IMG/VR virus record: IMGVR_UViG_3300045988_174698
Direction: 5' to 3' (one strand)
DNA length: 64,000 nucleotides
Origin: a virus
Shown here piece by piece: positions 3,872-33,420 of the stretch; positions within the stretch are counted from its first letter, which is position 1, and every line of letters begins with the position of its first letter. The notes under the pieces are model-generated. The model searched no databases and was not told the DNA's origin. It was given only the letters and a program-made list of their open reading frames with translations. The translations under genes were made by a program, and so were the position numbers.

Positions 3872-4224
3872 TATATTAATTCTCTGTTAAAAGTTGAAAC
3901 TACAAAACTTCGGAATAGAATTAAATCTTCTAGAGCATTATCTAACGATGCTACTTGTTTTTTAACTCTTAAATATTTTTCAGTAATAATTTGTATAATA
4001 TTTTTAATATCTCTAATAGAACAAGGATCGTATTCAAACATACATAATCTTCTATTTAAAACACCAATAGGCTCATTTGTTAAAATTATAGGAATTCTCT
4101 TGTTAGATTGAATTTTTATAACAAAAGGAATAGATCCAAGGTCTACTAATAATTTTAGATATCTTATATCTACATTATTTGGAAATATAAATCCTGCCTG
4201 TTTAAGATTTCTAGTAATTAACAT
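3871..4224 (-). CDS. hypothetical protein
   Basis: 117-aa ORF from track. Confidence 0.5.
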   Translation of the reverse strand: MLITRNLKQAGFIFPNNVDIRYLKLLVDLGSIPFVIKIQSNKRIPIILTNEPIGVLNRRLCMFEYDPCSIRDIKNIIQIITEKYLRVKKQVASLDNALEDLILFRSFVVSTFNRELI

Positions 4225-4267
4225 AGTATTAAAAAATAAGGCATTAGAAAACTAATGCCTTAATATT

Positions 4268-4837
4268 TTATTGTTTATTAACAGTGTATCCATGATGTTC
4301 TAAAACTAGTTTACATAAGTTTAAGTACTCTTCTACAGTTAAATCACTTTTAGAATAATTAGCTGCAGGAGTTGTAATACCTAAATTTGATAAATCATTC
4401 GACCCGCCTTTAGAAACTGGTATTATATGATCAAAACAATAATCATCTTTTTCTAAATCAATAGGAGTGCCTGTTAAATAGCACTTTGTTTTTGTGCCAA
4501 ATTTATTAATAATATCTAAAGTCTTAATTTTATTTAAACTCTTCATTCCTCTATTTTGAAAATGTTCAATATATCTCCTTAAACGTTTACGTCATGTTCT
4601 ATTAGAGATTCTTCTACATCCATGAGAGATTCTAGCACAAAAAGTACATAGTCTAGATTTAATTCTCCCCTTAAGTGTATTACGTCATAATGAAGTAGAT
4701 TTTCGTTGTTTACTATTAGTTATATCATTACAATAATATCCAACAATACTTTTGCTACATCCAAGTATCTTAGCAATTTCATTATAACTTTTATTATCAC
4801 TTCTTAAAATAAGAATTTGTTCCTTTAACTTACTCAT
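4268..4837 (-). CDS. HNH homing-endonuclease-like protein with N-terminal HTH, TGA-recoded
   Basis: ATG at 4837; two in-frame TGA (W); TAA at 4268 (189 aa). N-terminus SYNEIAKILGCSKSIVGYY is an HTH. C-terminus CYLTGTPID...DHIIPVSKGGSNDLSNL is an HNH motif. Lies immediately 3' of the intron-containing tRNA. Confidence 0.65.
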
Positions 4838-4851
4838 AATCAACTTATTAG

Positions 4852-5289
4852 CACGAGCTCTCCGATTCGAACAGAGACCGTAGGGTTTGGAGCCCTACAA
4901 TACGGTTTTGCTTACCACTATAGTTTTCACTACCAGTTTTACTGTTTGTAGTCTGGACTATATCAGCTTGATATACAAGTGTGGCATTTAGTCTCTACAC
5001 ATTTATAGAGTAAAGTAGGATACATAGAGAAGTGTACGGCTTTAATTTTCGACCTACTAAGCACTCCGCCTATTTTACACGGCATAAACAGCCTATGTTC
5101 TCTACTGTATTTTACTCTAATTTAGCTCGGTATTATCAGCTATCCATATTTCAGGACCTTAGACTTTCTTAGAAAGCTGATTCGCATGATTTTTATCATC
5201 TTATTTCGCTTTTACCGAATTTGCCACAATTTTCACGCCAAGCGTGCTCCAATTCGAAGACCGCTGTGCTACCATTACACTAAGCTCGC
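4852..5289 (-). tRNA. tRNA gene interrupted by a group I intron; spliced product predicted about 92 nt with anticodon UCA (opal-reading, Trp-type candidate) and a long extra arm
   Basis: 5' exon 5257..5289: GCGAGCT-TA-GTGT-AATGGTA-GCAC-A-GCGGT-CTT. 3' exon 4852..4910: CAAA-ACCGT-[ATTGTAGGGCTCCAAACCCTACGGT]-CTCTG-TTCGAAT-CGGAG-AGCTCGT-G. The only junction satisfying group I rules (5' exon ends in U, intron ends in G) gives anticodon loop CUUCAAA. Anticodon stem GCGGU/ACCGU is formed exon-to-exon. Alternative reading of the extra arm as a CCA anticodon arm is noted in findings. Confidence 0.55.
4911..5256 (-). mobile_element. group I intron (ORF-less, about 346 nt) inside tRNA gene at anticodon position 34/35
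   Basis: Minus-strand core elements: R-like GTGTAGAGACTAAATG (plus 4985..5000) and S-like GATATAGTCCAGAC (plus 4951..4964) in the correct order, pairing GACTA/TAGTC (P7). No ORF in either orientation. Flanked by tRNA halves. Confidence 0.6.
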
Positions 5290-5358
5290 ATTTATTATCT
5301 TTAGTTATACAGCAAAGATAACAAAAATCTGTGAACAATCAAAAATTTAATTAACAAA

Positions 5359-6564
5359 TTATAAAGAAAATTTGCGAATTTTGGTTAAATAAATCTCTTT
5401 ACGATATTGGTTAACTCCACCATAGTCACCATAACTCATCTGCACTTTACGAAGATGGTATAGCTTACCTCCCTCTAATTTTAATTTATCTGCTATATCC
5501 TTTGGAAAAGTAAAATCAATAACCTTGTCAACTGTTATTTTTTTATAGTTACTATCCTTTGAATTTATAACATATATTAAGAAAGCACTTAATATAAGCA
5601 GGTACCACTTAATTTCAGAGTAATCTGTAGTGGGTCTTAAAAATCTGAATTCTACAGTTTTATGGGCATCACCTGAAATTAAATGCATTATATTCATATT
5701 AAAATATCTACCGTGCACTTCCCACTTACGCTCCTCTGTTGAATCATATGAATTAGGTAAATAAAAACTTTGGTCATCATTATACTTATTACCAGTGAAC
5801 CTTTTGTAGAATGTAGGGAGAGATGCAATACTCGGAAAAGGTTTATTGTAAGCTTTACCATTACTTTTATAGCGTTCTGTATAGTAACTATATCTTGGTA
5901 TGTACATACTAATAGACCATTGAAAATGGCACCAGAACTTACACAGACGATTAATATAACTATTATTAATTGGAAAGTTACCAAAATGAATATGCAAAGA
6001 GCAGTTTTTATCGTAAAACGTGTATCTTTCAAGCAGTTTCAAATGCTGTTTAATAATAGGTAAATCTATATGTGTTAATGGAAAAGTTACATATTCATGC
6101 CCATTAATTGAACCATCATACAGTGGTACTAGATTTGTATCAATACAACTTAACCAAGGTATGTTTCCTGCGGATGTTTCATATTCAAGGCCAAAGGTAA
6201 AGTCTTCAATATATGTAAATTCTTTATCAGGTATTAATTTAATATACTTAGGTTTTAAAGATAGTTTTGAAAAATTGTAACATCTATCTATTGGATAATT
6301 AAACACATATTTAGAATCTGTAATGATATTATTAGATAGTTTTAAATCTATCGTATAGCAACAAATATTATTTACCCAATATAATGGTATTTTGCAGTTC
6401 TCGCGTCTTTCCAAATAGGTAATTTTCCCTTCTATTACTAGAGGAATATTTAGTGGGTCTATTTCAAAATAACCATATTCTATATATGCGTAATCAATAT
6501 AGATCACACCTCTTAGTAAGGTATCTCCAGTTTCCCACCTTTTTTTAGTATTATTGTACAGCAT
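5359..6564 (-). CDS. COOH-NH2 amidoligase (glutamine-synthetase-fold, amidoligase_2-like)
   Basis: 401-aa ORF. Motifs GLEYETS, SLHIHFG and VEFRFL match the GxExE...HxH...EFR pattern of phage amidoligases. All Trp encoded by TGG, no TGA. Confidence 0.55.
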   Translation of the reverse strand: MLYNNTKKRWETGDTLLRGVIYIDYAYIEYGYFEIDPLNIPLVIEGKITYLERRENCKIPLYWVNNICCYTIDLKLSNNIITDSKYVFNYPIDRCYNFSKLSLKPKYIKLIPDKEFTYIEDFTFGLEYETSAGNIPWLSCIDTNLVPLYDGSINGHEYVTFPLTHIDLPIIKQHLKLLERYTFYDKNCSLHIHFGNFPINNSYINRLCKFWCHFQWSISMYIPRYSYYTERYKSNGKAYNKPFPSIASLPTFYKRFTGNKYNDDQSFYLPNSYDSTEERKWEVHGRYFNMNIMHLISGDAHKTVEFRFLRPTTDYSEIKWYLLILSAFLIYVINSKDSNYKKITVDKVIDFTFPKDIADKLKLEGGKLYHLRKVQMSYGDYGGVNQYRKEIYLTKIRKFSL

Positions 6565-7873
6565 CTAAATTAACAAGTCTATTAGTTATAAACTGTAAAA
6601 TCTGTGTTTCTAGTACTTCAAAATCGAATGTTGTATTTTCTGCATTATTCTTGAAAATTTCAAAAGCGCTAGGAGCATAGGTATATGTTGTAGAACTTAC
6701 TCCATCTTTTACATTAACTTTATCAGGAGCATTAAATAGAGTAACATATGATCCTTCCATGTACTTCATATAATTGAAGTCTTTGTCAACAGTAGTTAAG
6801 ACACCATTAATAATTCGAGGATTATATGCAAAGTAATCAATAACTTCGGGACAATAAACAGAAAGAACATCATTTGTAAAAAGGTCATCTATATTTTCAA
6901 GGAAATCATAACTTTCTTTATTGGGTAACAATCGCCCATAGAAGAAGTAGAAAGTATGTCTATATGCGTTAGAGCTGGCATATGCTTCGGGTACTAAATG
7001 CCCAGAAGGATAAGCTAGATACATACCGTGTGCTGGAATTTCATTTAACATATACGTACCTGTAGTTTGACTGTAATATAAGTTATTAGAGGTATATGCT
7101 GGGGAATTATCCTTATAAGAAGCACCATATACTGGTATGCAAAGGGTTCTCCTTAATTTTTCACGATTAATATTTCTAATACAGTAAACCTTGTTATCCT
7201 TAATTCGGCATAACTTATTTACAGGAAATTCATAGATTGTTTTTTTACAGTTGATGGAATATAGAGAAGCATACATCGACGAAAAATAAAGTTTACCCTC
7301 GTTAATCATATAAACTAAAGGTCGCTCAGATTTTGTTTTGTTTTCATTATAACAAGAGCTCCCTTTGAACATGAGTACTTCTGGAGTCAAAGATCTATAA
7401 TCTACCATTATAAGAACAGCACAACCTGTATATTCTTCTAGAACATCATATCCATGTTCATAAATAATTTCTGCCAAAATTTGAGAATCAGACATACCAA
7501 GAGTATTAGGTTCTGGAAGATATTTATTAGATAATTCTCCAATATTAAGAATAGTACCATTATGCATTAGTACAAACTCAATTTTGTTACCACGTCTAAT
7601 AACAACTGGCTGAGCCTGATCTAAATTCACAGGATATCCAGGAGAGGCCTTTCGACAATGTAATAAAGCAATAGAAGCTGACTTTGGATAATTTATACTA
7701 GTAGTAAAGTTCCTAAATAATTTTCTGTCACTGACTCCATATTCTACCTTACCATCAATAAAAATACCACAACTATCTCCCCCTCTTTCATCGTTTAGGG
7801 TTCCAAGTATATTAAAGTGGTTTATGTTAAATTCAGTCTTTTCAGTAGAAATTATTCCAGCTAGTCCGCACAT
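6551..7873 (-). CDS. class II (Ntn) glutamine amidotransferase domain protein with long C-terminal extension
   Basis: 440-aa ORF beginning MCGLAGI (catalytic Cys2 of GAT-II/Ntn hydrolases). Contains no Trp codon at all. Confidence 0.55.
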   Translation of the reverse strand: MCGLAGIISTEKTEFNINHFNILGTLNDERGGDSCGIFIDGKVEYGVSDRKLFRNFTTSINYPKSASIALLHCRKASPGYPVNLDQAQPVVIRRGNKIEFVLMHNGTILNIGELSNKYLPEPNTLGMSDSQILAEIIYEHGYDVLEEYTGCAVLIMVDYRSLTPEVLMFKGSSCYNENKTKSERPLVYMINEGKLYFSSMYASLYSINCKKTIYEFPVNKLCRIKDNKVYCIRNINREKLRRTLCIPVYGASYKDNSPAYTSNNLYYSQTTGTYMLNEIPAHGMYLAYPSGHLVPEAYASSNAYRHTFYFFYGRLLPNKESYDFLENIDDLFTNDVLSVYCPEVIDYFAYNPRIINGVLTTVDKDFNYMKYMEGSYVTLFNAPDKVNVKDGVSSTTYTYAPSAFEIFKNNAENTTFDFEVLETQILQFITNRLVNLDAVQ

Positions 7874-8652
7874 ATTCCATAAAGTTTAATTAGATGTTCT
7901 GCCAGTACTTTATTAGATGTATTAATACACTTTTGAACTAAATCTCCTTCTGGCAAAGGAAATCCTTCATTAAACATATCTACAGCTAACATAGTTTGTT
8001 TATAAATCATTGGAAGGTATTTGTCATTAAGCATAAAGCTACTTAGACATCTTGCTTCTACTCCCCACTCAGGACAACGGAAACTTCCTGCTTGACCATA
8101 TAGAGTTCTTCTAAAAGTATCTCTATCATATAATACAGAAGGAACTCCACAGCATAGATCAAAGAACTTAATAAGCTTAACAGATGTATCAAAATTAGGG
8201 TTATCATATCCTATGTGAATGTGTGAACCTGCCACTCTTCTATTATCAGGATAACCTTGTGGCTTATCGTTTTCACACTCTGTATAAGCATCATAATCAC
8301 TAGAACATCCAATTTCATTTGCTTTAGGATCAAGTAATTGATCTTCAGGCACGGGCATAGATGCACTACAACAAATATCAAGATTGTTATCGAATTGTTT
8401 AACCCAATTACGAATCCAATCTTTCATATATTTAATAGAATCTACAAATTCATTACTAGAAGTACAAGGTGGGATATTAAATTCTCCTAAAATACAGTCA
8501 ATCTCCACACCAAATCCTTTTGGCATGCCTTTAGTATATGGTTTACCTTTTTCTCCTGGAATTATTCCAATTGCAGATACTACTTGGTTTGTTTTTGTAT
8601 TAAAAATAAATAACTCGGGGTCTGCTCCAACTGTAATATTTTTAATTTTCAT
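7861..8652 (-). CDS. hypothetical protein, possible second amidoligase/GCS2-like enzyme
   Basis: 263-aa ORF. N-terminal GADPELF and internal GSHIHIGYD are loosely amidoligase-like. Overlaps neighbours by a few nt, consistent with an operon. Confidence 0.4.
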   Translation of the reverse strand: MKIKNITVGADPELFIFNTKTNQVVSAIGIIPGEKGKPYTKGMPKGFGVEIDCILGEFNIPPCTSSNEFVDSIKYMKDWIRNWVKQFDNNLDICCSASMPVPEDQLLDPKANEIGCSSDYDAYTECENDKPQGYPDNRRVAGSHIHIGYDNPNFDTSVKLIKFFDLCCGVPSVLYDRDTFRRTLYGQAGSFRCPEWGVEARCLSSFMLNDKYLPMIYKQTMLAVDMFNEGFPLPEGDLVQKCINTSNKVLAEHLIKLYGICAD

Positions 8653-9289
8653 CTGCTATTAATTTATCAATTATTTCATTTATTCTTATAACAATTGGTG
8701 ATTCAGGTCTCATATATTCAGGATGTCCTTGGATAGCCAAACACTTTGGAAGATTTGGTCTGTCATACAAAACAATTTCAGGTTCACAAGGAGGAGACAT
8801 AACATTATCTCCCTCATATATACTTGACCGATGACTAGTTGAATAAAACAAACATGTCCAATACTTATATGGTATTATAAATGGATACTGCATTTGATGG
8901 TGTGTACTGGTAATTTCATACATTTTATTCGTACTTATCTCTGTAATAGAGTGAGTTATTCGAATAGCATGATTTTCCACATTCTGAATAAGTATGCCAC
9001 CATTCATAATACATAAATATTGACTGCCTCGGCAGATCCCCACAGCTAACTGATCAGGTCTGATTTTCTCAAATTCTTTCTTTTCTGCGAGATCCCTTTG
9101 TAAATTAGCACAAGTAGTAGGATGAGGTTTACAGTTATACAAAGAAGGGTGTACATCTTCTCCACCTGTAAAAATAACAATATCTGCATCGTTAATATCA
9201 TCTACTAGCTCACGCTTAGTAATAAAATTAGCATAGTGTACTTGATTACCAACGACATATACTTTTTTTGTTTTTAGCATAGTATTCAT
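8642..9289 (-). CDS. class I glutamine amidotransferase-like / gamma-glutamyl hydrolase-like protein (putative)
   Basis: 215-aa ORF. ADIVIFTGGEDVHPSLY resembles GATase1/peptidase C26 nucleophile-elbow context. Weak. Confidence 0.4.
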   Translation of the reverse strand: MNTMLKTKKVYVVGNQVHYANFITKRELVDDINDADIVIFTGGEDVHPSLYNCKPHPTTCANLQRDLAEKKEFEKIRPDQLAVGICRGSQYLCIMNGGILIQNVENHAIRITHSITEISTNKMYEITSTHHQMQYPFIIPYKYWTCLFYSTSHRSSIYEGDNVMSPPCEPEIVLYDRPNLPKCLAIQGHPEYMRPESPIVIRINEIIDKLIADEN

Positions 9290-9944
9290 TCGCTATAAAA
9301 TTAATTCCCTTGACAATTTGAGGTAATTGCTTCGAGTTAAATACTCGAAGCAAATGGCACAAACTATTATGTTCAGCCATAATCCTACAAAAACTTTCAC
9401 TATAGTTAAAGTCCCTTCTAATTAAATTAAACTGGCACTTAGGATTAATGTTATAAAATGTTAGGTTATCTAATCCTGGGCAATGACATCTTCTTCCATC
9501 ATGAAACAATGTAATATAAAGTTGCATAATTTGAGTAATATCCAATTCTGGAAAGTTTGCTCTATTTTGCCATGCAGAGTATAATAATAACCAAAACGGA
9601 TTTTCGTATACATATCTAATATACATAGCACTATAGACAAAGAATCTATTGTCAGGAGCACACCTAATTTGTAATTTGTATGAATGTGTACTCTTTACAA
9701 GTGATATTAATGTAAACCCCAGTAGTCTTGAGATTTCCTTAAAGTACTCAATTAATGTTTTCGTATCAAATGTACAGTAGTTAAGCTGAACTTGTCTACT
9801 TCGAGGCCATATAATAGTAGCATAATAATAACCATTAAATTCACCTTGAGAACATCCCCTACTAAAACAAGCCATATTTTCATAAAAGTAATTACCAGCA
9901 TAGTAATTACATTTATATTCTTTTCCTCTAAAATCTAGTATCAT
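9246..9944 (-). CDS. hypothetical protein
   Basis: 232-aa ORF, Cys/Tyr-rich. Confidence 0.45.
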   Translation of the reverse strand: MILDFRGKEYKCNYYAGNYFYENMACFSRGCSQGEFNGYYYATIIWPRSRQVQLNYCTFDTKTLIEYFKEISRLLGFTLISLVKSTHSYKLQIRCAPDNRFFVYSAMYIRYVYENPFWLLLYSAWQNRANFPELDITQIMQLYITLFHDGRRCHCPGLDNLTFYNINPKCQFNLIRRDFNYSESFCRIMAEHNSLCHLLRVFNSKQLPQIVKGINFIANEYYAKNKKSICRW

Positions 9945-10671
9945 AGTACTTTTTTAAATGATTCCCATAATAAGTTATCCCAAAAGAAGCCAGAGAAGGA
10001 GCTGTATTACTTTCAACAATGATATAACTATTATCACTACACAATATATCAAAGCAGGCAATTGTGAGGTCCATTTGTTTTAATGCCTTAATACAATCAC
10101 TAATTATATTTTCCCAACATACAGGTAATTTGTGTTCCTCTGTTACTAAAACAAATATTGAATTATCAGCATGTTTATGCCATTGTACTTCAGCGTCTTG
10201 TTTCAGCACTTTTTTACAAGCATAAAAACAACCATGATGAACATCAATATGTACTCTATATTCATTTGGGAAGAAGTAATACTTTTCAAACACGAAATCC
10301 CTTATATTAACATTATTACATAGATCGTCTAAAGATTTGGGATTATCAATATAATAAATATTCTTCCCTTTCGATGAATGTTTATGTTTTGCTATAAGAA
10401 TTTTGTGCTGCATAAAAAACTTATAAATGCTTGCTTTGTTAGAAGAACTAATCCATTCACTATGAGATACACCCGCTTTGTCAAAGGCACGCTTCATTAA
10501 TATTTTATTCCCAGAAGTTTTAACTCCCTCTATAGTATTAATTTCCAAATATTTATATTTAGAAATTAAAGGAGTTGTGCTCCCTAAACGTAGTAGTACT
10601 CTTTGATTAAAAGGTATACTACGTAAAGGAGCACAACTTGTATTTGGACTGAAAACTCGAAGTTTTAACAT
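9928..10671 (-). CDS. ATP-grasp-like ligase (putative)
   Basis: 247-aa ORF. C-terminal ...FDILCSDNSYIIVESNTAPSL resembles the ATP-grasp E-x-N Mg-binding loop. Confidence 0.4.
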   Translation of the reverse strand: MLKLRVFSPNTSCAPLRSIPFNQRVLLRLGSTTPLISKYKYLEINTIEGVKTSGNKILMKRAFDKAGVSHSEWISSSNKASIYKFFMQHKILIAKHKHSSKGKNIYYIDNPKSLDDLCNNVNIRDFVFEKYYFFPNEYRVHIDVHHGCFYACKKVLKQDAEVQWHKHADNSIFVLVTEEHKLPVCWENIISDCIKALKQMDLTIACFDILCSDNSYIIVESNTAPSLASFGITYYGNHLKKYYDTRF

Positions 10672-10672
10672 A

Positions 10673-11215
10673 CTATAGTTCTAATGCCTTATTATAGCAG
10701 TACACAGCCAGTTCCTTCTGGGTTAACTTATTATAATCAGCAAATTCAGCCCCATGGTCCTGTAAAAGCTTTGCAATATACTGTAGTTCGTGTTTTTTTA
10801 GTTTGCTAAATTGAGTGGCCGAGAATTCTGCGACCTTCTTATCAAGAGCAATTAATTTGAGGAATACTTTTCCAAATGGTTTATTATTAAATTTATTAAT
10901 ATATACCTTTTGGTCAATATTATCCTCTACTGGGATAGCTTTAGGTTCAGGGTTAGGAACAACCTCGTCATATGGGATAATCATAAATTCAGGTACCCAT
11001 ATGCCTATAGATAGAAAATATGGAATATCTGGGTCATTCTTATCTACATCCTCAATAACAGCAACATTACCAAAATAGGGAAAATCAGAAAATAAGACAT
11101 ATTTCATGTCTTTGTTACAATAAACACCTTCTAAGTCAGGTGCTTCCTTGAGTAGATTATCCTTAAGTAAACAATCAAGATTTTTAATGATAACTTTGTC
11201 TCCTTGTTCAAACAT
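10673..11215 (-). CDS. hypothetical protein
   Basis: 180-aa ORF. Confidence 0.5.
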   Translation of the reverse strand: MFEQGDKVIIKNLDCLLKDNLLKEAPDLEGVYCNKDMKYVLFSDFPYFGNVAVIEDVDKNDPDIPYFLSIGIWVPEFMIIPYDEVVPNPEPKAIPVEDNIDQKVYINKFNNKPFGKVFLKLIALDKKVAEFSATQFSKLKKHELQYIAKLLQDHGAEFADYNKLTQKELAVYCYNKALEL

Positions 11216-11229
11216 AACTATTTTTATTT

Positions 11230-12306
11230 TTATTTGAAAAATGATAAATATTCTAATGGACTAACAATTCTATATTTAGTCTTTCTAAACTCTAAAAGGT
11301 CAAAAGAATCTGAATAACTCATCATTGACCTTAAGTAGTCAACGAAATTTTCACACCAATCTTGTAACTTATACAAAACTGGAACTGTGGTTTCAATACC
11401 CTCAGCAGTTTTGAGTTTTTGGTTTCCTATTTCTATCTGTGCTTTTTTAGTAGACATACCATAGTATTTACGTCTGAGTCCTAGATTTGGATCTGTAACA
11501 GGTAGTAACTCTCCACAGGCTTCTTGAGATTGTGCAAAGAGTTTTCCAACCATTACATAATCAGCTCCAAGAGCTAGTGCTTTAATAATCTTATCATAAT
11601 TATCAAATCCTCCGTCCGCAATAATAAATGGAACACTTTTGTATGGATGAGTTATTGAGTTACAACCCAAGTAAAAACCAGAGTCACCCGCTATATTAAC
11701 TACTTTTGTTTCTTCAATACATTTTTCTATAGCCCGCTTTTTATCAACAACTTCCTTAATTAAGGAAGCCATTGCATAGTGTATTCCACCATTAGCAGAA
11801 GTAGTACATACAGAACCTCCCCCTACACCTATCCGTACAAAATCAATTCCTGCTAGTGAATAATCAGCATAAGTATCAGGGTTAGCAATATTGCCCGCCA
11901 TTAATGACAATCGACCTCCAAATATAGACTTTGCTTGTGAGCATAAATCAATTAACTTTAACATGTGGCCATTAGCAATATCAACACACACATAACGAAT
12001 ATCATTGGTGGTATCATATATATTTTCAAAATCTGTAATAAATCTTTCAAACTCAGATAAGCCAAGTGCAACAAACGTACTTGTAGACAACTCCCATCGT
12101 TTATCATAATCTACTCCTCTTGGAATAATTGTATTGATCTTATTTCTAAGAAAAACTTCATAATTATTCTCATTAATAACAGAATTCATAGGAGCAGTAA
12201 ATAACGGCAGCATACCATCAAAGTTATATGGATTACAGTCTGCACGATGTTCTATTCTACTGGTTCTAGCTGGTACTAAACAAATATCATTTAACCCATA
12301 TGTCAT
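11230..12306 (-). CDS. IMP dehydrogenase / GMP reductase family TIM-barrel oxidoreductase (GMP-reductase-like, no CBS insert)
   Basis: 358-aa ORF. GVGGGSVCTTSANGG (catalytic Cys loop) and IADGGF...GADYVMVG motifs of the IMPDH/GuaC family. Confidence 0.6.
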   Translation of the reverse strand: MTYGLNDICLVPARTSRIEHRADCNPYNFDGMLPLFTAPMNSVINENNYEVFLRNKINTIIPRGVDYDKRWELSTSTFVALGLSEFERFITDFENIYDTTNDIRYVCVDIANGHMLKLIDLCSQAKSIFGGRLSLMAGNIANPDTYADYSLAGIDFVRIGVGGGSVCTTSANGGIHYAMASLIKEVVDKKRAIEKCIEETKVVNIAGDSGFYLGCNSITHPYKSVPFIIADGGFDNYDKIIKALALGADYVMVGKLFAQSQEACGELLPVTDPNLGLRRKYYGMSTKKAQIEIGNQKLKTAEGIETTVPVLYKLQDWCENFVDYLRSMMSYSDSFDLLEFRKTKYRIVSPLEYLSFFK

Positions 12307-12479
12307 TTTTAATCTCTCTTAATTAGTTTATTTTTCTGTTCCTCAGTATCCCTAAATTTTTTTATTTTTCTTTTCTTATTTAGACGAGCAATCTCTTCCT
12401 CGTACCTATTATATTTATCCAATTGATTACCTCGAATAAATTTACCCATGATAAAAAACAGAATTTCAATTTTGATTTA

Positions 12480-13262
12480 CTATTGAATCTCTAAAGTACC
12501 TGGTTCCAGTCCAAGTTCTTTCTCGACTTCTGCGATTGTTTTCTTTACAACCTTATTCTTTACTTTTGGCCAAGCAACATCCATTTTTGTGTAATCACTA
12601 AGTTTAAAACAGTGTGGTGTTGGAACAAAAATCTTCTTAACTTGGTAGAAACTCCCATTTTTAGGGGAATTAAAGCATCCACTTAAATAACCCTTAATTT
12701 CTCCTTTATTGTTAACATAAACAATAGCTTTAGAAGAAATAATAAATCCAAAATACTCTTGATCTTTAACTATTAACTGTACTATTCGCCCAGGTAAAAA
12801 CTCAGACTTAAAATCATTATTAAGATTAGAATCTACCTTATTATCCTCAACCTTATTTTTTTCTTTACCTAGAATCTTTTCAAACTGGTCTATAATAGAT
12901 ATGTCATTTGATTTTAATTCAGGTGATTCAAGTAATTTTAATAGATTCTTTTCTGATTTTAAAATAATATCACTATATAGAGCAAGTTTATTCTCTTCTA
13001 TATCATTAATACCTAACTCTTTAAGGATAGTGTTGTCATCATCTGAACAGAAGATATCACTATCTCCAGTAAGGTAATGAATATTCTGATTATATGTAAC
13101 AACATAATAAGATCTTTTATCTGTATCAATTAAGATCTTATAAGGGTGTCCTGAAAGTAATAAAGATATACTTACCTTAGGATAGTTTAATGTATATCCG
13201 TATCTACTTAAGATAAACAAAATGGTATTTAAACTGTTACCATTATATAATAAATAACGCAT
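12480..13262 (-). CDS. hypothetical protein
   Basis: 260-aa ORF. Confidence 0.5.
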   Translation of the reverse strand: MRYLLYNGNSLNTILFILSRYGYTLNYPKVSISLLLSGHPYKILIDTDKRSYYVVTYNQNIHYLTGDSDIFCSDDDNTILKELGINDIEENKLALYSDIILKSEKNLLKLLESPELKSNDISIIDQFEKILGKEKNKVEDNKVDSNLNNDFKSEFLPGRIVQLIVKDQEYFGFIISSKAIVYVNNKGEIKGYLSGCFNSPKNGSFYQVKKIFVPTPHCFKLSDYTKMDVAWPKVKNKVVKKTIAEVEKELGLEPGTLEIQ

Positions 13263-13315
13263 AATTTGATTTTTTTGTTCTTTTTAGTTAAAAAACAGTA
13301 ACAAGTGAAGGCTCA

Positions 13316-14248
13316 CTATTCTTTTACTTCTATAATTTTATATACAGAATTTTGAGTATGAAAATGATTTTTATCTACGATTTTAGTTACAGGTGAGGTT
13401 GAGAAGCGAAATCCAAGACAAGCTCGAAACCCTACAGTTATAGGTAGACTTAAATATCCTTGAGTAAGGTACCCTTTATTGATTCCATTTGGATGATGAC
13501 CTGGCTTATAATTACAAGTATCAGTATCTTCTAACTTTTCAATCTGAACTTTAGTTTGTGCAGGATAACTACACACCTCATAATATAATTCACGTACACT
13601 CCTCAAAGTTTCCTCATGGTGATCATCTGATTCAGGTATTGATCCTTCACAATCACATTTCTTTAATAGTAGTAATGCTTCGAAGTCAATACACTCTAGA
13701 TTATTAGCTAACCTTAGAATAGCCGACTTGATATCTCTTTGTTTTAAAATATAAAGAGGTTGCATGTGACACCTTACCAAAGAAAGAATAGCTCTTTTGT
13801 ACTGAGGTTTAATATCAGAAATATATGTATCTAAAATATGTTCAGCAATTGGAACTCCTTTAATTGCATGGTCCTTACAGTGGTAAAGTCCATCTTCTCC
13901 CTTTTTTGTAGTAACTGGTTTACCTATATCATGTAATAGAGCAGCAAAGATTAGAATATTTCGATAGTCCATGTCTTGAAAAAGTACTTCATTACTGTTT
14001 TCAATATGCTTCAACATACATTTTGTAACCATACAAGTATGGGTGAAAGCGTCTCCCTCTTTATGCCAAAGTATATTCTGAGGAGTTTCTGACAACGCTT
14101 TAAATTCAGGAATTTTTAAAAGTTCATCCCAAAAGACAATATTAGTTTTTGGATCATAAATCATATTATATAATAAGATTATAAGAGATAATAGTAGTAA
14201 CAAATAAAATAGCTGAAGATTTTGCAAAATGTATAAAAGTTGAATCAT
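13316..14248 (-). CDS. HD-domain phosphohydrolase with N-terminal transmembrane segment
   Basis: 310-aa ORF. AALLHDIGKP and HCKDHAIKG are the H...HD...D metal-binding motifs. Hydrophobic N-terminus. Confidence 0.55.
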   Translation of the reverse strand: MIQLLYILQNLQLFYLLLLLSLIILLYNMIYDPKTNIVFWDELLKIPEFKALSETPQNILWHKEGDAFTHTCMVTKCMLKHIENSNEVLFQDMDYRNILIFAALLHDIGKPVTTKKGEDGLYHCKDHAIKGVPIAEHILDTYISDIKPQYKRAILSLVRCHMQPLYILKQRDIKSAILRLANNLECIDFEALLLLKKCDCEGSIPESDDHHEETLRSVRELYYEVCSYPAQTKVQIEKLEDTDTCNYKPGHHPNGINKGYLTQGYLSLPITVGFRACLGFRFSTSPVTKIVDKNHFHTQNSVYKIIEVKE

Positions 14249-19202: not shown

Positions 19203-20081
19203 TTATAATGACATAAATTGGTTATAGTTATCCTTGTATCCTATAGAAGTATTCACAAGAAGCTCGCCATGCATGCTTCTACCAGGCATTGGCACCATAA
19301 AGTCATTTCCATATATGTTAGTTAAAACACTTAAATATACTTCTGGAGCAGGAAACATTCCTCACTCAAATTTAAGGTAAACCTTATTGTTATAGTCTCT
19401 AGCGTTTCTAAGACTTTGTATCTTATTTGGAAATGTAAGATTACCAAATGACTCTGTGGAGAGTACATTATATCGTTGTCGTAGCTCTTGATATTTTTCT
19501 CTAAGATATAAAAGTCTAGATGTGTTTTCCTTAGAAGAATCATAACATTGTATTCTTGTTTTTACAGCCAGTGCTTCTAGTTTAATTAAGTGAAGCTGGT
19601 GCATAAACTTTTGTCTCTCAACTAGATCATCTGGAACATTATCAAAAGGACATATATCTATAAAGATCCCTTGGTTAAAGGTAAAATGACCTTCTAAATC
19701 CTTTTTGTGAATACATGTTGTGTCACTTCTTCTTAACTTCGTACAGCAATAAAAGGTACTGTCTGTTCAGTCATTTTGAACAAAATATGGATAATTCAAC
19801 TCTTTAACTGCACACTCTAAAAATCTATCATAGTCTGTTCTAGGCATAGCAATATCAATATCATCGTCCCATGGAATAAATCCACCATGTCTGACAGCAC
19901 CAAGTAATGTTCCTCCATCTAAATAGTGCTTCAAATGATATTTATCACAGATATTTTTAAACTGTCATAGCAAATCTAGCTCAACTCCTCAAAGTTCTTT
20001 TCTTTCTTTAGACACCAAGAATCCATTTTTTACTTCTGCTTCAAAAAAGTTATCTGGTAATTTAATATTTAAGTTTACCAT
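19203..20081 (-). CDS. LicD-family phosphotransferase (phosphocholine / phosphopolyol transferase), four in-frame TGA
   Basis: ATG 20081, TAA 19203, 292 aa. [28 protein letters not shown] is the LicD signature. Start overlaps the upstream cytidylyltransferase gene by 20 nt. Confidence 0.65.
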
Positions 20082-20742
20082 TAAATAAAAATTTAGCCAA
20101 CTCTAAATCATCAGGACTTGTAATTTTAAAATTCATAAGTTCTCCCGAGATATATAAGCATTTATTTCCATTATGCTCATATAAGTCAGGTAAAGTCTGA
20201 TAATTATCTATATTTTTAATCTTTGTAATTATATTATAAAGGCTTCTAAGCATAAAAGTTTCAGGAGTCTGTAAGATAGCAATTGGCTCCGTTCTTACTC
20301 CAGGAACATGTAACGAACTAAGATCTTTTAAAGTGCTAACTGTTGGAATGTATGGAACAACAGCCGAATTATTAGAATCACAAGAAGACAAACATCTTGT
20401 AATTAAATTTGAAGTGAAAAAAGGTCTAACAGAATCATGAAACATAATTTTTTCAATAGAAGGATAGTAAGTCATTATGTATTCAAGACCAGCAATTCTA
20501 GATCTTAAGCATGAGTACCCTCCTTCTATAATTTTGATATAAGAAAATGGAAAAAGCTTTCGAAGAATAGGAATATATTCAGGTAGAGTAACTATAACAA
20601 TTATGTTAAACAGTCTTAACCTAACAAACTTTTCAACAGTCAAATATACTATAGGATGTCCATTAATATCTATAAACTGCTTAGGAATATTCATTCCTAC
20701 CCTAGTTCCTTTTCCAGCAGCATTAATAACTAAGGCATTCAT
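20062..20742 (-). CDS. nucleotidyltransferase of the IspD/TarI family (CDP-alcohol-forming cytidylyltransferase)
   Basis: 226-aa ORF. N-terminal INAAGKGTRVGMNIPKQFIDINGHPIVYLTVEKF matches AAGxGxRxG...PKQ(Y/F)..L.G.P(I/L) of IspD/TarI. Confidence 0.6.
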   Translation of the reverse strand: MNALVINAAGKGTRVGMNIPKQFIDINGHPIVYLTVEKFVRLRLFNIIVIVTLPEYIPILRKLFPFSYIKIIEGGYSCLRSRIAGLEYIMTYYPSIEKIMFHDSVRPFFTSNLITRCLSSCDSNNSAVVPYIPTVSTLKDLSSLHVPGVRTEPIAILQTPETFMLRSLYNIITKIKNIDNYQTLPDLYEHNGNKCLYISGELMNFKITSPDDLELAKFLFNGKLKY

Positions 20743-21887: not shown

Positions 21888-21907
21888 AAGTTAAAAAGAT
21901 TTTTGTG

Positions 21908-21950
21908 TGGCTGATGAGAATTGAACTCATGTCCATTCAACTATTAATAA
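21908..21950 (-). pseudogene. orphan tRNA 3' fragment (T arm plus acceptor 3' strand)
   Basis: Minus-strand ATGAG-TTCAATT-CTCAT-CAGCCAC-A. No complementary 5' acceptor (GTGGYTG) within 700 nt upstream. Confidence 0.35.
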
Positions 21951-22643
21951 TAATTTTATTTACATGCTAGGTTATTTTATTCTCCTATTCCGAAAAATAA
22001 CAAAACGTATCAGATAGTTTTTATCTTATCTCCTACAACTTATCTGAAATAACTCGGTTCTATAATAGTAGTTAGTAATGATTAACTTACATCATCTGCA
22101 TTAATCTATACAGAAAATCTTTGTCTATTATTTCTCCAGACTTGGATAGCTTAAGCTGCAAAAGCTACTTGAGCACGCATAGGAGTTGCAAGAGGCATAA
22201 CCTTGTTAGCCATCTTACGTACAGTGTTCTTAGCGTTTATTTTTTGGTCCAGTTGTTAAAGAAGTTATACCAGCTCCTGCATGAATTGTTATCAACTATC
22301 TTGAATGTCAAAAACCTGGCAGGCCCAAAGACAGGGCAGTTTATACTTATACCCTAGAAGTGGTCCATAATAGCTAAAGTGTTTAATGCTCTAATTATAT
22401 AGCAGCGACTAGTATACTGTTATACTTTTCTTGTAACTTCAAGAACTATTACTAAAACTTCAATGTGAAGTTCCTAAAAGCCACTTGAGTATTTTTTGGG
22501 TTCACTCAAGAATACCGTGTTTTATTGTCGGGATCAAACAACCAAACTACCACCTTTCTATATACAAAGGCAAACTCATACTATCTGGCGTAACCCGTTA
22601 CTATTATTTATATACCGCTAAGTAACCTAATGCGGTTTACTTT

Positions 22644-24085: not shown

Positions 24086-25279
24086 TTAATTATTTTTACC
24101 TTGTTTTTTAGCAATATCAAGGAGCATATTCAGTCCTACAGCATCCATAGGATTAGCAGATGCTCCTTCTTTACCTCCAATAATCATTACTTCAGGAACC
24201 CAACGAACATTTGAGTTTGCTAATGCCTGAGCTACACCAATTGTGGTTTCTTTATCAATTGTTGCTCTTTGCAATGGGTCCAATCCAGCAAGTACTTTAG
24301 CTCGTGCTGCTGCAGCTTCTGCCATGCCCTGAGCTTCAATACGTTTTGCATCTTCCTTTGCCTTTAAAGCAGAAAGACGAGCTACTTCATATTCCTGTTC
24401 AGCCTTAGTAACCTCTACAGCCTTAATTTTCTCCTGTTCCCACTTAGCCTTCATAGCAAGTGCCTTACCCTCCTCTTCAGCACGAATTGCCTCTTGAGCA
24501 GCAGCAGCTGACTTCGCACGACTAGTTTGAATAAGCATATTTGCTTCCTGTTGCTGAGCAATCTGCCTATTTACTTTATCAGAATATGCAATCTTTGATA
24601 CAGCTACCTGACCAATCTCTAGTCCATAATAAGCAAATGGGGAGGATTCACTACGCTTGTAACCTCCTGCTGCTAATGAGTCAGGAATTAGTGTAGCTAC
24701 ATTAATAACTTTCTTTTCTCCAGTAATTGCATCAAGTACTTCGCTACGCTTGATTGCAGTTTTGTAGACACCATTATTTAACTGATCAGTAATATATTCA
24801 ATCAAGTCATTCTTCTTCTCTGCATACGATTCAAAAGCAGACATCAGAGGACCTGAAGCATAAATTACCTTAGTAACAGTCGGACGAACAAGATCATTCA
24901 TTAGACGATCCATACCATTATAATCAGTCTGAATACGAGCGAGGTATTTAGGGTCAGTAGGAAGTTTTACACGAAGTGATCCATAAATCATACCATCTGA
25001 AGCATCATTGAAGATTACAGGAATAGGTTTTCCCTGCTGATCGCCAGCCTCAGAGTCAGATCCGAACCACAACTGTTGAGTTTTATAGTAAGTAGTGGTT
25101 TTGCCCCACCACTGCCAGTGAAAACCAGGACTAGTCCAGTATTCCATGTTACCAGTAAACGGATACTGATTGACTACAATCGTCTCATTCTTTACATCTT
25201 CCCCGATTTTACCCAGAGAAACAACACAGAAAATAGCAAATACTACTACAAGAGCAGCAACAATTTTTTTGAAATTCAT
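24086..25279 (-). CDS. SPFH / band-7 (flotillin or HflK/C-like) membrane protein
   Basis: 397-aa ORF with N-terminal TM helix and C-terminal Ala/Glu-rich coiled region (KAKWEQEKIKAVE...AQGMAEAAAARAKVLAG) typical of SPFH proteins. Confidence 0.55.
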   Translation of the reverse strand: MNFKKIVAALVVVFAIFCVVSLGKIGEDVKNETIVVNQYPFTGNMEYWTSPGFHWQWWGKTTTYYKTQQLWFGSDSEAGDQQGKPIPVIFNDASDGMIYGSLRVKLPTDPKYLARIQTDYNGMDRLMNDLVRPTVTKVIYASGPLMSAFESYAEKKNDLIEYITDQLNNGVYKTAIKRSEVLDAITGEKKVINVATLIPDSLAAGGYKRSESSPFAYYGLEIGQVAVSKIAYSDKVNRQIAQQQEANMLIQTSRAKSAAAAQEAIRAEEEGKALAMKAKWEQEKIKAVEVTKAEQEYEVARLSALKAKEDAKRIEAQGMAEAAAARAKVLAGLDPLQRATIDKETTIGVAQALANSNVRWVPEVMIIGGKEGASANPMDAVGLNMLLDIAKKQGKNN

Positions 25280-25457
25280 CTTTAGATTTTTAAATTACAC
25301 AATTACCTTTTAAAAAAATAATAAAATGGAATTATTACCTTCCATGTAATTTTACGATTAGTAATTTTACATGTATCTAATAACTGAAGAGTCATTAGAG
25401 TATAGTAAAGAATAAAGGAAATACTAACTAATAGTATAACAAAACGATAAAACCACA

Positions 25458-25739
25458 TTACTTTAAATTACTTTTAATGTTATCTCTTGTATCACAGTAG
25501 ATTTTAATTTCTTGGGGGAAAACATGAATGATAGTAGTATCTTTCATTTCCTTAAATGTAGAATTAATAATCCTCTCTAGGGAGTCTATCTGTAAAACTA
25601 GAGATTTTATATTCTCTTGGTTCTGTCTAAAAAAGGTTTCACTGCGTGTATTATCTATACAAAAAAATGCAAAACTTATTAGGAAAGAAGTTCCAAGAAG
25701 AAGTAAGACAACTCCAATTTTTATAGATTTATCTGTCAT
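25458..25739 (-). CDS. hypothetical membrane-anchored protein
   Basis: 93-aa ORF, N-terminal hydrophobic helix. Confidence 0.4.
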   Translation of the reverse strand: MTDKSIKIGVVLLLLGTSFLISFAFFCIDNTRSETFFRQNQENIKSLVLQIDSLERIINSTFKEMKDTTIIHVFPQEIKIYCDTRDNIKSNLK

Positions 25740-25965
25740 AACTAAGAATTAGCATATTAACTATTTAAGTTAAGATAAGGATTAGATTTTTATTACAAAA
25801 ATATATACCAGCTGTGTAACACAATTTTTGCCTGATTGGTACTAGCATTTACCATACACTTCCTTAACCAATATCAGAAACTATATGTACAGGTATATAA
25901 ACAATAAATAGCTTCTGTAAGTGTACAACCTATTGCACAGATACTTTCACTATCTTATTATTGTG

Positions 25966-26040
25966 ATTGGATAGGATTCAAACCTAATGTTTCCCTATTG
26001 TACAACAAGGCGAGTTTCATCACATTCTCCTCTCAATCAA
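25966..26040 (-). other. degenerate tRNA-like element (Asn-tRNA 3'-end-like GGTTTGAATCCTATCC)
   Basis: T-arm/acceptor-like segment shares 15/16 nt with the 3' end of tRNA-Asn at 18196..18268, but no acceptable full cloverleaf. Confidence 0.25.
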
Positions 26041-26391
26041 CCCCCAATCTTATTGAAAACAATAAGACGCCCTTGTCTTGTCTGGGAGACTTTCATAAGG
26101 GTACTTTTTAAATAAAAAGAGGTAATCCCATAAGTATTATTCTACCTCCGCCTCATCTATAAAATCATAGATTATCAGCAGCCTCTGCCAAGGCATCCCT
26201 GTTTTTCTATGAACTGGCAGATTCATAAATTATCAGGATAAACAGATTATTAAATTTCTTTAATATTTCCGTTTTTATATTTCTTCTGAGTAGCAATCTT
26301 TATTATTCCATCCTCGTTTACTAGTTTCTCTTTTCATTCTTAGCTATAACTTTATTAGTATATTACTAATATAATGCAGAAAGTAGTGTCA

Positions 26392-26685
26392 TTACTTCTC
26401 TAATCCAAATTCATTAATAAAATCAATATTCCTCTTACATAAACTTTTTACAGTAGCAACTTTATGAGTTACATTTCCCGCGGTAACCTCAGAAGCTATC
26501 TCTGCAATATGCGTAAGATTATTGTATGCCATGATCTCACCATATTGTTTCTTTATTTTATCTGTATAATTAAATGCTAATGCTTTAATTAGAGCAACAT
26601 TATGAGAGTAATTTTCAGTAGTTACTCTATCACATTTATTATTTATACGTGTAAACCATAATATAACATCCTCTTTTGTTATCAT
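26392..26685 (-). CDS. hypothetical protein
   Basis: 97-aa ORF. Confidence 0.4.
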   Translation of the reverse strand: MITKEDVILWFTRINNKCDRVTTENYSHNVALIKALAFNYTDKIKKQYGEIMAYNNLTHIAEIASEVTAGNVTHKVATVKSLCKRNIDFINEFGLEK

Positions 26686-26711
26686 AGTGTTATGTGCTTA
26701 TTGTTAGGTTT

Positions 26712-26969
26712 CTAAGAATGAATTTGTTTCCCTTTATATATAGACCAGCCTTTATCTTCTGCTATTCTAACACAACGAGACTCCATTTGGCTATGTATTG
26801 TTTGAATGTTTTGATTTAAGGAGTACGTTATAGTATCTTCTTTACCATTAATAAGAATTTTGCCATTTTCATAGTCAAAAAGAATCTTATCTTTAAAGAT
26901 TTCTATAACTAACAAATAAAGGGTTTCCGCATAGCAAGTTGTATAAATAGGATGAATAGCAAAGTACAT
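26712..26969 (-). CDS. hypothetical protein
   Basis: 85-aa ORF. Confidence 0.35.
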   Translation of the reverse strand: MYFAIHPIYTTCYAETLYLLVIEIFKDKILFDYENGKILINGKEDTITYSLNQNIQTIHSQMESRCVRIAEDKGWSIYKGKQIHS

Positions 26970-27883
26970 ATTGGGTTTGAATCTAATTATAAAAAAATAC
27001 TCCTCTGTAACGCATGCCCTTGCAGGAGTATCAATTCACTATAATAATACTGGCTCCCTATAATAGTTTCTGAACTCAAGACTACAGAATCTCAAAAGTA
27101 AAGTTATTCAATCAGAAACTTCTTGTTGTACCTATCGTATCTAACACATTCACAAATCTGGGGATATTGTTTATGCTGACTAAATACTCCTGGCCTGGAC
27201 TCAAGTTTTTCTACTCCTTCCCTCTAAACTTATAACGAGTGAACTCCCTTAGTAGACAAAGGACTCATTGACAGTTTAACTACTACTATCAACCTGCAGT
27301 TTAACTCCCCGAATTTACGGAGTAATCCATGCAACTGTACATAGAACTTGCTCTTTTGTTACACAACACAAGTTATTGTGAAAGATTTACGACTTCCTTA
27401 AACGATTTACCTTAGAACATTGCAGAACTTATTCCTTTAACATATGATTATTTCTACTAATACGCATAATAATCTAGAATAAAAACCTCTGTTAAAGTTA
27501 AGATACACTAGGTTAATATTATCCTCTAATCCCCGCTATTAGAGTATTCTTTTTTTAGTTTAACTCCCCTTCTACTATTGGGGTTTATCTACAATGCTTA
27601 AGTTTATATTAGAATTCTTTTTATCTGCGTTTGAATTCTGTAATATCCTCTTCATCATAGCCAATTAAGGCTTCAAGAGGAACATCATCAACCATCTCGT
27701 CAATAATAGATGTATCTTCAATTTCCATACCCCCCCCTCTTTAAGTTTATAGGCTACTATAAATAGTATAGTTGAGACTAAGATAATTAATATAAAAAAT
27801 GATACTTTTTTAGTTTTGCTTGAGGTAAGTATCTAGATGAAACGTTATAATCTAATCAGTCATTTCCTACTCATCTATTTTTA

Positions 27884-28282
27884 TTATATTCCTAAAGGTT
27901 TATCCTTTAGCAAGTTTAATGCTGTTTGTAAACCATCTTCTAAACAAGCAGAATAGTGTCTCTGCCGTACTTTACCAGGTCCAGAATATTCCTCAAGTGT
28001 AACTCCCAAGTTTAATTTTGTGATTGTCCAAAAATAGGATAGTGTTTGATCTAAGTGAACTAGTACAACTGTTCCACACTCGTTTCTGAGCCAGTATTGT
28101 AATTCTGTTTGATAGAGAGCTGGGATTAAATTGTCATACAGTTCACAGGTTCTTTTTGAATAATGATAACTAATATTGTTCTCTGAACTTAAACTGTATT
28201 GTGACATATAATACTGTTGCTGACAGGTAGGATATCCTTTTCTAACAGCTATTTTAACAGTTTCAAAACTAATTCTTTTCAT
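27884..28282 (-). CDS. hypothetical protein
   Basis: 132-aa ORF. Confidence 0.45.
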   Translation of the reverse strand: MKRISFETVKIAVRKGYPTCQQQYYMSQYSLSSENNISYHYSKRTCELYDNLIPALYQTELQYWLRNECGTVVLVHLDQTLSYFWTITKLNLGVTLEEYSGPGKVRQRHYSACLEDGLQTALNLLKDKPLGI

Positions 28283-28291
28283 AAAAGTGAT

Positions 28292-28549: not shown

Positions 28550-28560
28550 ACATTTAATTA

Positions 28561-28809: not shown

Positions 28810-28819
28810 AGTTTATCGA

Positions 28820-30310: not shown

Positions 30311-30311
30311 A

Positions 30312-30884: not shown

Positions 30885-30908
30885 CTGTATTAGTATTTTT
30901 TAATTATG

Positions 30909-32691: not shown

Positions 32692-32749
32692 TATTTATTA
32701 ATTATGTTGATTATTATTAAAGTTTCGGATTTCTAAGGCATTTGAATTT

Positions 32750-33397: not shown

Positions 33398-33420
33398 TGG
33401 TTTAATATATTAGTTGAATG

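Follow-up and report, generated by a model that had tools for sequence, protein, structure and literature searches.

A probable crAss-type version of the phiEco32-like amidoligase module in a TGA-recoded phage related to Crassvirales

What might eight tightly packed genes, encoding several peptide-ligase-like enzymes, make in an uncultured phage? The genes lie at 5359-12306, on the minus strand, of a 64,000-nt stretch of viral DNA (IMG/VR record IMGVR_UViG_3300045988_174698; hereafter the window is this whole stretch). A preliminary description of the sequence had read them as an operon of amidoligases, one glutamine amidotransferase and a ligase of the ATP-grasp type. From profile searches of the open reading frames (ORFs) against Pfam, PHROG and NCBIfam, and from gene orders in other phages, we consider it somewhat better than an even case that the window carries a crAss-type version of the amidoligase module of phiEco32-like phages, in the form of a co-directional, probably early operon. 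By predicted function, the operon is a set of three ATP-dependent carboxylate-amine ligases and two amidohydrolases with a Cys nucleophile.

Gene order and predicted enzymes

Eight consecutive minus-strand ORFs fill 5359-12306 exactly. Five of their junctions are overlaps of 11-44 nt and the other two are gaps of 1 and 14 nt, in agreement with the tight packing described earlier. All six families named in the preliminary description were recovered by the profile searches, but its count of six genes was too low, as the 232-aa and 180-aa proteins (unk232 and unk180) had been missed. Two further genes, upstream in the same TGA-free block, are probably co-regulated with the module. The eight genes are listed in the order of transcription, followed by the two upstream genes:

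11230-12306, minus strand: IMPDH/GMP-reductase-family (GMP-reductase-like) enzyme, 358 aa (Pfam IMPDH 5e-35)
10673-11215, minus strand: conserved 180-aa protein (unk180), without a family match, conserved in related phages
9928-10671, minus strand: RimK-like ATP-grasp carboxylate-amine ligase, 247 aa (phrog_2599 6.2e-21)
9246-9944, minus strand: conserved 232-aa protein (unk232), without a family or fold match, conserved in related phages
8642-9289, minus strand: Peptidase_C26 / class-I GATase-like amidohydrolase (C26), 215 aa (Pfam Peptidase_C26 1e-12)
7861-8652, minus strand: phiEco32-type COOH-NH2 ligase type 2, 263 aa (PF14395 30.8 bits; phrog_3815 8.9e-55)
6551-7873, minus strand: class-II N-terminal-nucleophile (Ntn) glutamine amidotransferase (GAT-II), 440 aa (GATase_6 4e-12)
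5359-6564, minus strand: Amidoligase_2, 401 aa (PF12224 24.2 bits; phrog_2443 1.5e-8)
12480-13262, minus strand: 260-aa protein, upstream (no TGA)
13316-14248, minus strand: HD-domain phosphohydrolase, upstream (Pfam HD 1.7e-8; no TGA)

Two of the three ligases, the COOH-NH2 ligase and Amidoligase_2, are both predicted to have a glutamine-synthetase (GS)-type fold, GCS2-like for the former. The COOH-NH2 ligase exceeds the gathering score of PF14395 (30.8 bits versus 25), and its match to phrog_3815 spans residues 1-261 of 263. Amidoligase_2 passes the PF12224 cut-off marginally (24.2 bits versus 22). The GLEYET, HIHFG and EFRF motifs quoted in the preliminary description are all present within this 401-aa protein, and residues E127, E129, D150-G151-S152, E157, C188, H191, H193 and E305-F306-R307 are invariant among nine orthologues from crAss-like and proteobacterial phages. 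Its gene overlaps that of GAT-II by 14 nt, and the two genes are adjacent in every locus examined, namely those of the crAss-like phages cr108_1 and Cellulophaga phi14:2, three relatives of the window (L010, L012 and L013), the phiEco32-like phage SGF2, Proteus phage Privateer and the PaP3-like phage PUTH1. The third ligase, the ATP-grasp protein, matches rimK_fam (1.2e-7) and MptN (5.4e-7) in NCBIfam and RimK in Pfam (1.6e-3), all under the curated cut-offs, and has orthologues in cr108_1 (40% identity) and phi14:2 (30%). Since it scores 31.4 bits against the RimK family TIGR00768, whose cut-off is 143.4, we call it RimK-like and not RimK. No solved relative of any of the three ligases was detectable by sequence. 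Catalytic residues are intact in every enzyme checked, with the ATP-grasp protein judged by its profile matches only.

The motif MCGLAGI, also correctly quoted before, is the N-terminus of the 440-aa GAT-II. The N-terminal glutaminase domain (residues 1-240, with Cys2) contains the N-terminal catalytic Cys, the Arg, the Asn-Gly of the oxyanion hole and the Asp for glutamine binding that are expected of an Ntn glutaminase. For the C-terminal domain of ~180 aa, no match was found among solved structures, and none of the known acceptor domains (PRTase, SIS, PP-loop, FMN) was recognised. The second amidohydrolase, the 215-aa protein described as 'GATase1-like', does belong to the class-I GATase family, and its type can be given more precisely: it is by its profile matches of the Peptidase_C26 (gamma-glutamyl hydrolase) type (PF07722, 48.7 bits versus 20.5; phrog_7218 6.2e-29). 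It keeps the Cys-His-Glu signature, its GICRGSQ and QGHPE motifs aligning with ICRGMQ and QWHPE of 3fij.

The IMPDH-family protein has no CBS insert, a catalytic loop of GVGGGSVCTT and a short flap without the Arg-Tyr pair. In alignment with 3r2g and human GMPR2 (both from the PDB), the Cys loop and the A/S-E-G motif are conserved, with GGGSVCTT and AEG aligning to human GMPR2. The best NCBIfam match is GMP reductase PRK05096, whose equivalog cut-off of 397 bits is far above the 112 bits obtained; with IMPDH models the score is lower still (88.7 versus a cut-off of 481.5). We call this predicted product GMP-reductase-like. The assignment to the GMP-reductase/IMPDH family in the preliminary description thus stands, while membership of the module comes down to lineage-specific synteny: the gene is syntenic with the module only in the window lineage (L013), whereas in cr108_1 the IMPDH-like gene lies beside thymidylate synthase, ~15 kb from the module. 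The IMPDH-like gene is therefore not a universal module member. The HD protein has an HDIG motif and weak similarity to the HD domain of the CCA enzyme; an HD gene precedes the IMPDH gene in L013, and one is also found upstream in L010. We infer that the GMP-reductase-like and HD genes most simply serve purine-nucleotide salvage, co-transcribed here to supply a genome of ~30% G+C.

Neither of the two orphan partners has a family match (for unk180, in Pfam, PHROG or NCBIfam), and no fold match was found for unk232 among solved structures. Nevertheless, in the window lineage both are, by conservation and position, module components with fixed partners. Seventy homologue clusters were found for unk180, and their alignment shows two conserved domains with a linker between them that varies in length, and has D58, D61, P65, Y66, W73, G115 and F118 among the invariant residues. 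In L013, and in L010 as well despite its otherwise shuffled order, the gene immediately before the ATP-grasp gene is a homologue of unk180. The unk232 family is an accessory specific to crAss-like phages, and its gene always lies just upstream of that for C26. We also considered a conserved small protein, serving as substrate or carrier and encoded beside the ATP-grasp ligase, and rejected it, since the adjacent ORFs differ in sequence between lineages and have no conserved acidic C-terminus.

The module in other phages

A tblastn search with the COOH-NH2 ligase found relatives in 313 phage records, including Pseudomonas, Escherichia and Vibrio phages and crAss-like gut phages. The preliminary description had held that the gene combination matches operons predicted by comparative genomics, and this proved right: annotated copies of the module are known from phages of the LUZ24/PaP3-like, phiEco32-like and Privateer groups and, among crAss-like phages, from cr108_1 and phi14:2. 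Relative L013 keeps the full nine-gene order HD, IMPDH, unk180, ATP-grasp, unk232, C26, COOH-NH2 ligase, GAT-II, amidoligase, at 43-72% amino-acid identity. In cr108_1, helicase and primase lie upstream of ATP-grasp, two unk232-family proteins, C26, COOH-NH2 ligase, GAT-II and amidoligase, which are followed by UDG. The order in phi14:2 is gamma-glutamyl cyclotransferase (GGCT), ATP-grasp, COOH-NH2 ligase, GAT-II, amidoligase and then UDG; the fetched stretch gave no relative of C26 or unk232. Both of these modules sit within the replication region, between primase/helicase and UDG. In SGF2, Privateer, PUTH1 and UFV-P2 (the last two PaP3-like), the order is COOH-NH2 ligase, phrog_4877, amidoligase, GAT-II, one or two small ORFs and ATP-grasp. 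PUTH1 and UFV-P2 carry GGCT in addition; the protein encoded after their COOH-NH2 ligase gave no match to a C26 family.

From these gene orders, the universal core consists of the COOH-NH2 ligase, the adjacent Amidoligase_2/GAT-II pair and the ATP-grasp ligase, to which the crAss-type version adds the unk232 family. An enzyme that cleaves gamma-glutamyl groups, either C26 or GGCT, was found in most versions of the module.

In related phages, self-splicing introns and homing endonuclease genes have repeatedly entered the module genes. The close relatives L004-L009 (92-99% nucleotide identity) have insertions inside module genes that are absent from the window: one of 364 or 1127 bp in the COOH-NH2 ligase gene, at the site corresponding to window position 8226|8227, and one of 266 or 996 bp in the C26 gene, at a site corresponding to ~9022-9027. 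The C26 insert of L005 (9357-9588) is a group I intron by its Rfam score (61.9 bits versus 50). In the more distant L011 and L012, LAGLIDADG genes split the COOH-NH2 ligase at other positions, and in L011 the C26 and amidoligase genes are split too.

Host phage, genetic code and other features of the window

The window is phage DNA, with terminase, portal and endolysin-like proteins encoded alongside the module. When TGA is read as Trp, the large terminase (TerL), the portal and an endolysin/tape-measure-like protein are found on the plus strand; under code 4, TerL and the endolysin/tape-measure-like protein are restored, and the portal is recovered as two ORFs. Once TGA counts as sense, ORFs of 150 aa or longer sum to 12332 aa instead of 7702 aa, and the plus-strand late genes contain 55 in-frame TGA versus 10 TGG. 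TGA at a Trp-like frequency in late genes and ORFs fragmented under the standard code are the marks of a recoded phage, and the window has both. Its TerL is ~30% identical to TerL of crAss-like phages and 44% identical to that of an unannotated 117-kb human-gut phage; the close relatives are IMG/VR contigs of 100-168 kb. As judged from these sequences, the window phage is large, TGA-recoded and related to Crassvirales, but only distantly to cr108_1 and phi14:2 (TerL ~30%).

The module departs from this codon usage. The eight genes contain no in-frame TGA and 21 TGG, with 156 TGA off frame, and the whole block 5359-14248 contains no in-frame TGA and 28 TGG. Assuming the 25% TGA rate of the flanking minus-strand genes, the probability of a block without TGA is ~3e-4. 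In L013, the same genes hold 1 TGA and 27 TGG. The TGA avoidance given in the preliminary description is thus confirmed; the early expression drawn from it fits the data and is not proven by them. A TGA-free module is consistent with expression before the code switch, and the codon pattern agrees with the published picture of Zeta crAss-like phages, which are TGA-recoded and intron-rich and have TGA chiefly within structural genes (PMC12386605). The module shares its strand with tRNA, RNase H and ParB-like genes. A scan for sigma-70 promoters and terminators gave counts not above those in shuffled sequence.

Just downstream of the module, on the minus strand, lies a split tRNA-like gene (~4848-5292, insert ~4901-5252). 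It consists of a 5' acceptor and D-arm, GCGAGCTTAGTGTAATGGTAGCACA, then ~340 nt, then a complete stem-loop with a CCA anticodon, a T-arm and an acceptor. ARAGORN calls tRNA-Trp(CCA) on 324 artificially spliced variants of it. The insert follows the D-arm and is not in the anticodon loop, and the Rfam group I intron model gave no match on it. In L004-L009, an 82%-identical copy of this element is present at a different site, beside the equivalent of tRNA-Arg(TCT). An HTH-HNH homing-endonuclease-like gene, which requires two TGA read-throughs, lies next to it (4268-4837, minus strand), and the surrounding 1.4-kb segment (3872-5256) is replaced by a different sequence of ~1.1 kb in six of six close relatives.

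At least 12 tRNA genes are present in the window. The region 25300-38700 has few long ORFs under code 11 or code 4, with many tRNA genes and small ORFs. Two over-long tRNA-like sequences on the minus strand (34724-34852 and 34988-35092; 129 and 105 nt; Rfam tRNA 32.8 and 34.7 bits) have long inserts after the anticodon stem, are not called by ARAGORN and have no evident UCA (opal suppressor) anticodon. A tmRNA-like gene (21905-22326, minus strand) matches the full Rfam model RF00023 at 52.3 bits versus a gathering score of 47 and is likewise not called by ARAGORN. At 19203-20742, minus strand, a LicD-family transferase (Pfam 2.3e-39, four in-frame TGA) overlaps an IspD-like cytidylyltransferase (3.6e-27). 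An SPFH/Band-7 protein is encoded at 24086-25279, minus strand (Pfam 7.4e-11; phrog_11908 3.7e-35); in Proteus phage Privateer, a Band-7 protein lies a few kb from the amidoligase module. The two plus-strand portal ORFs (57202-58380 and 58731-59768) cover positions 54-306 and 461-768 of phrog_6547, and the ~350 nt between them may be another intron or insertion.

Possible chemistry and comparison with known systems

Three ATP-dependent ligases together with two Cys-nucleophile amidohydrolases suggest stepwise amide formation via acyl phosphates. In this scheme, the ligases would convert carboxylates to acyl phosphates and then make one amide or isopeptide bond after another, probably with glutamate or gamma-glutamyl units. 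GAT-II and Amidoligase_2, always adjacent, may be a two-part glutamine-dependent amidating enzyme, with GAT-II as the source of NH3 for a carboxylate that the ligase activates. C26 would cleave off a gamma-glutamyl group, a role that GGCT could take in other phages. The presence of either C26 or GGCT in different phages suggests a conserved step of gamma-glutamyl removal, which favours a small molecule as the acceptor. Such a group would be transient, as in PuuA/PuuD, EgtA/EgtC and BtrJ/BtrG. As the acceptor we tentatively propose, at somewhat under even confidence, a small metabolite with an amine or carboxylate group, produced early in infection to take over the host or counter its defences. 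A protein or a cell-envelope precursor comes next in likelihood.

Several points weigh against this interpretation as a whole. No substrate, product or phenotype of any module member is reported in the literature searched. The Amidoligase_2 score is marginal (24.2 versus 22), and the ATP-grasp scores in Pfam and NCBIfam fall under curated cut-offs. With a C-terminus that lacks a recognisable synthase fold, GAT-II could be a plain EgtC-like gamma-glutamyl amidohydrolase rather than an ammonia donor. Metabolite, protein, cell wall and nucleic acid are not distinguished as acceptors by the data. As to timing, codon usage is the sole evidence; some neighbouring minus-strand genes (RNase H, HNH, LicD) do hold in-frame TGA and a UCA suppressor tRNA, looked for in the window, was not found, so that early expression can only be inferred.

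Among the other acceptors, a protein is the one we find unlikely rather than very unlikely. The ATP-grasp ligase would glutamylate a host or phage protein in the manner of RimK and S6, while the GS-fold ligases and the amidohydrolases would act like PafA/Dop, attaching, amidating or trimming an isopeptide tag that redirects host translation or transcription. Five enzymes, however, exceed the needs of known tagging systems, all scores are far under the RimK cut-offs, and the neighbours of the ATP-grasp gene are dissimilar across lineages and without a conserved acidic C-terminus. GGCT, which replaces C26 in other phages, is moreover known for small gamma-glutamyl amines. A cell-envelope precursor seems to us quite improbable, though it has a published basis: for phiEco32, as summarised in PMC10580990, which attributes the idea to Iyer et al. 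2009, the module would amidate, or add amino acids to, the stem peptides of peptidoglycan or polymers resembling teichoic acid, thereby blocking superinfection or tuning lysis. In the distant relative L010, the module has genes for LicD and an IspD-like cytidylyltransferase immediately upstream of it, and the window too encodes both (19203-20742), but at a distance of 7 kb and with tRNA genes between. Known peptidoglycan amidation does use pairs of a ligase and a glutaminase (MurT/GatD), which counts in its favour. On the other side, the hosts of module-bearing phages (Pseudomonas, E. coli, Bacteroidota) have very different envelopes, and no module protein matched a membrane-associated family, a result from family matches, as no signal-peptide or transmembrane predictor was run.

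Hypermodification of nucleotides or nucleic acids is of similarly low probability. Here the ligases, together with the GMP-reductase-like and HD enzymes, would modify a purine or pyrimidine nucleotide, phage DNA or the phage's tRNAs with a group derived from an amino acid. The module does lie in a replication or nucleotide region (its neighbours are primase, helicase and UDG in both cr108_1 and phi14:2, and primase/helicase in the PaP3-like phages), and in the window it shares its orientation with the IMPDH-family and HD genes, an arrangement that is syntenic in L013. Lee et al. found that amidoligase and amidotransferase genes co-occur with thymidine-hypermodification clusters in viral contigs (PMC8989533), an association that speaks for this possibility, and by our own reasoning the Cys-C2 thioimidate of IMPDH/GMPR could in principle be attacked by an amine. 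Against these stand the lack of a 5-HMUDK, aGPT-Pplase, DpdA or hydroxymethylase gene in the annotated parts of the window, the unlinked IMPDH-like gene of cr108_1, and the phiEco32-like and LUZ24-like phages, which carry the module without such genes nearby; nor does any module protein have a recognisable nucleic-acid-binding domain. A more specific form of the idea, in which nine co-oriented TGA-free genes (for the HD and GMP-reductase-like enzymes, the three ligases, the two amidohydrolases and the two orphan proteins) would form one pathway to a purine nucleotide conjugated to an amino acid or gamma-glutamyl group, possibly via amine capture of the Cys-C2 thioimidate, is a long shot; its product might enter phage DNA or tRNAs, or might counter host defence as a signalling nucleotide or a decoy. 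Finally, ordinary host-like purine biosynthesis by PurF, PurK and GuaB, acquired as auxiliary metabolic genes, is hardly credible, and we reject it on domain content and scores. An assignment to PurF or PurK had been named beforehand as the outcome that would speak against the preliminary description. The profiles gave the opposite: only the glutaminase domain aligns to PurF, with no PRTase family by Pfam or NCBIfam, and the ATP-grasp protein prefers RimK/MptN (~1e-7) to PurK (2e-3) by ~four orders of magnitude, with 17.3 bits for PurK against a cut-off of 318. The two GS-fold ligases have no place in that pathway, the IMPDH-family protein has neither the CBS insert nor the Arg-Tyr pair in its short flap, as in GMP reductases, no other pur genes lie nearby, and all scores are far under the equivalog cut-offs.

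The kind of module is already described by comparative genomics, a prediction that later papers attribute to Iyer et al. 2009 (Mol Biosyst 5:1636), and is annotated in many phages, including crAss-like ones; a specialist would not be surprised to find it here. What is new is its occurrence in a large TGA-recoded lineage related to Crassvirales, with two orphan partner families, a lineage-specific linkage to GMP-reductase-like and HD genes, a standard-code block and introns in the module genes of relatives. The statement in the preliminary description that none of the genes has a known product agrees with the literature searched, which gave no experimental product for the module, only genome annotations, predictions and one directed-evolution observation. 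In that study of a P. aeruginosa phage, recurrent missense changes arose in the amidoligase and GAT-II genes (PMC11450229), the sole phenotype-like evidence that we found. The module ranks with the more widespread of the uncharacterised phage enzyme sets, and five apparently active enzymes, kept across distant phages, would imply a conserved and costly chemistry during infection. Comparative anatomy narrows the hypotheses, through the fixed GAT-II/Amidoligase_2 pair and the use of C26 or GGCT depending on the phage. Since the window phage is uncultured, it is a poor experimental entry point, and the culturable carriers LUZ24, phiEco32 and phi14:2 are better ones.

For the small-metabolite interpretation, the closest biochemical precedents are pathways with a transient gamma-glutamyl group: PuuA/PuuD for putrescine, EgtA/EgtC for ergothioneine and BtrJ/BtrG for butirosin. 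The similarity of their proteins to those of the window is at the superfamily level only, and the phage module differs from them in having three ligases, two amidohydrolases and extra proteins. The best-scoring characterised families for the ATP-grasp protein are the alpha-L-glutamate ligases RimK, MptN and CofF; compared with these it is short (247 aa), scores 29-31 bits, far under cut-offs of 143-350, and has no S6-like substrate with an acidic tail encoded nearby. GMP reductase (GuaC/GMPR) and the window enzyme are alike in their ~350-aa TIM barrel without a CBS insert, GSVCTT loop, (A/S)EG Glu and short flap. The score of the window enzyme is nevertheless far from the GMP reductase cut-off (112 bits versus 397), and its nearest solved relative is an uncharacterised Legionella 'IMPDH' (3r2g).

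At the level of the whole module, the phiEco32-like phages have the same four core families as the window (PF14395, PF12224 next to an Ntn GAT-II, and a RimK-like ATP-grasp), again as co-directional genes within the genome's early or replication part. The proteobacterial versions differ in a larger GAT-II (486-650 aa, compared with 440 aa), in phrog_4877 instead of a recognisable C26 after the COOH-NH2 ligase, and in ORFs of 72-77 aa before the ATP-grasp gene, often with GGCT; the window version instead has C26, the 232-aa and 180-aa families and the flanking GMPR-like and HD genes, and protein identity is only 26-32%. Further counterparts are the crAss-like carriers cr108_1 (Pipoluvirus) and phi14:2 (Akihdevirus), both Steigviridae, whose module genes have no in-frame TGA under the standard code. 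Unlike the window, phi14:2 has GGCT, with neither C26 nor an unk232 relative detected in the stretch fetched. In cr108_1, the single unk232 gene of the window is matched by two paralogues of that family (300 and 329 aa), the module lies between primase and UDG, and the IMPDH-like gene is elsewhere. The window proteins are 32-46% identical to those of cr108_1, and the gene order ATP-grasp, unk232 family, C26, COOH-NH2 ligase, GAT-II, Amidoligase_2 is common to both.

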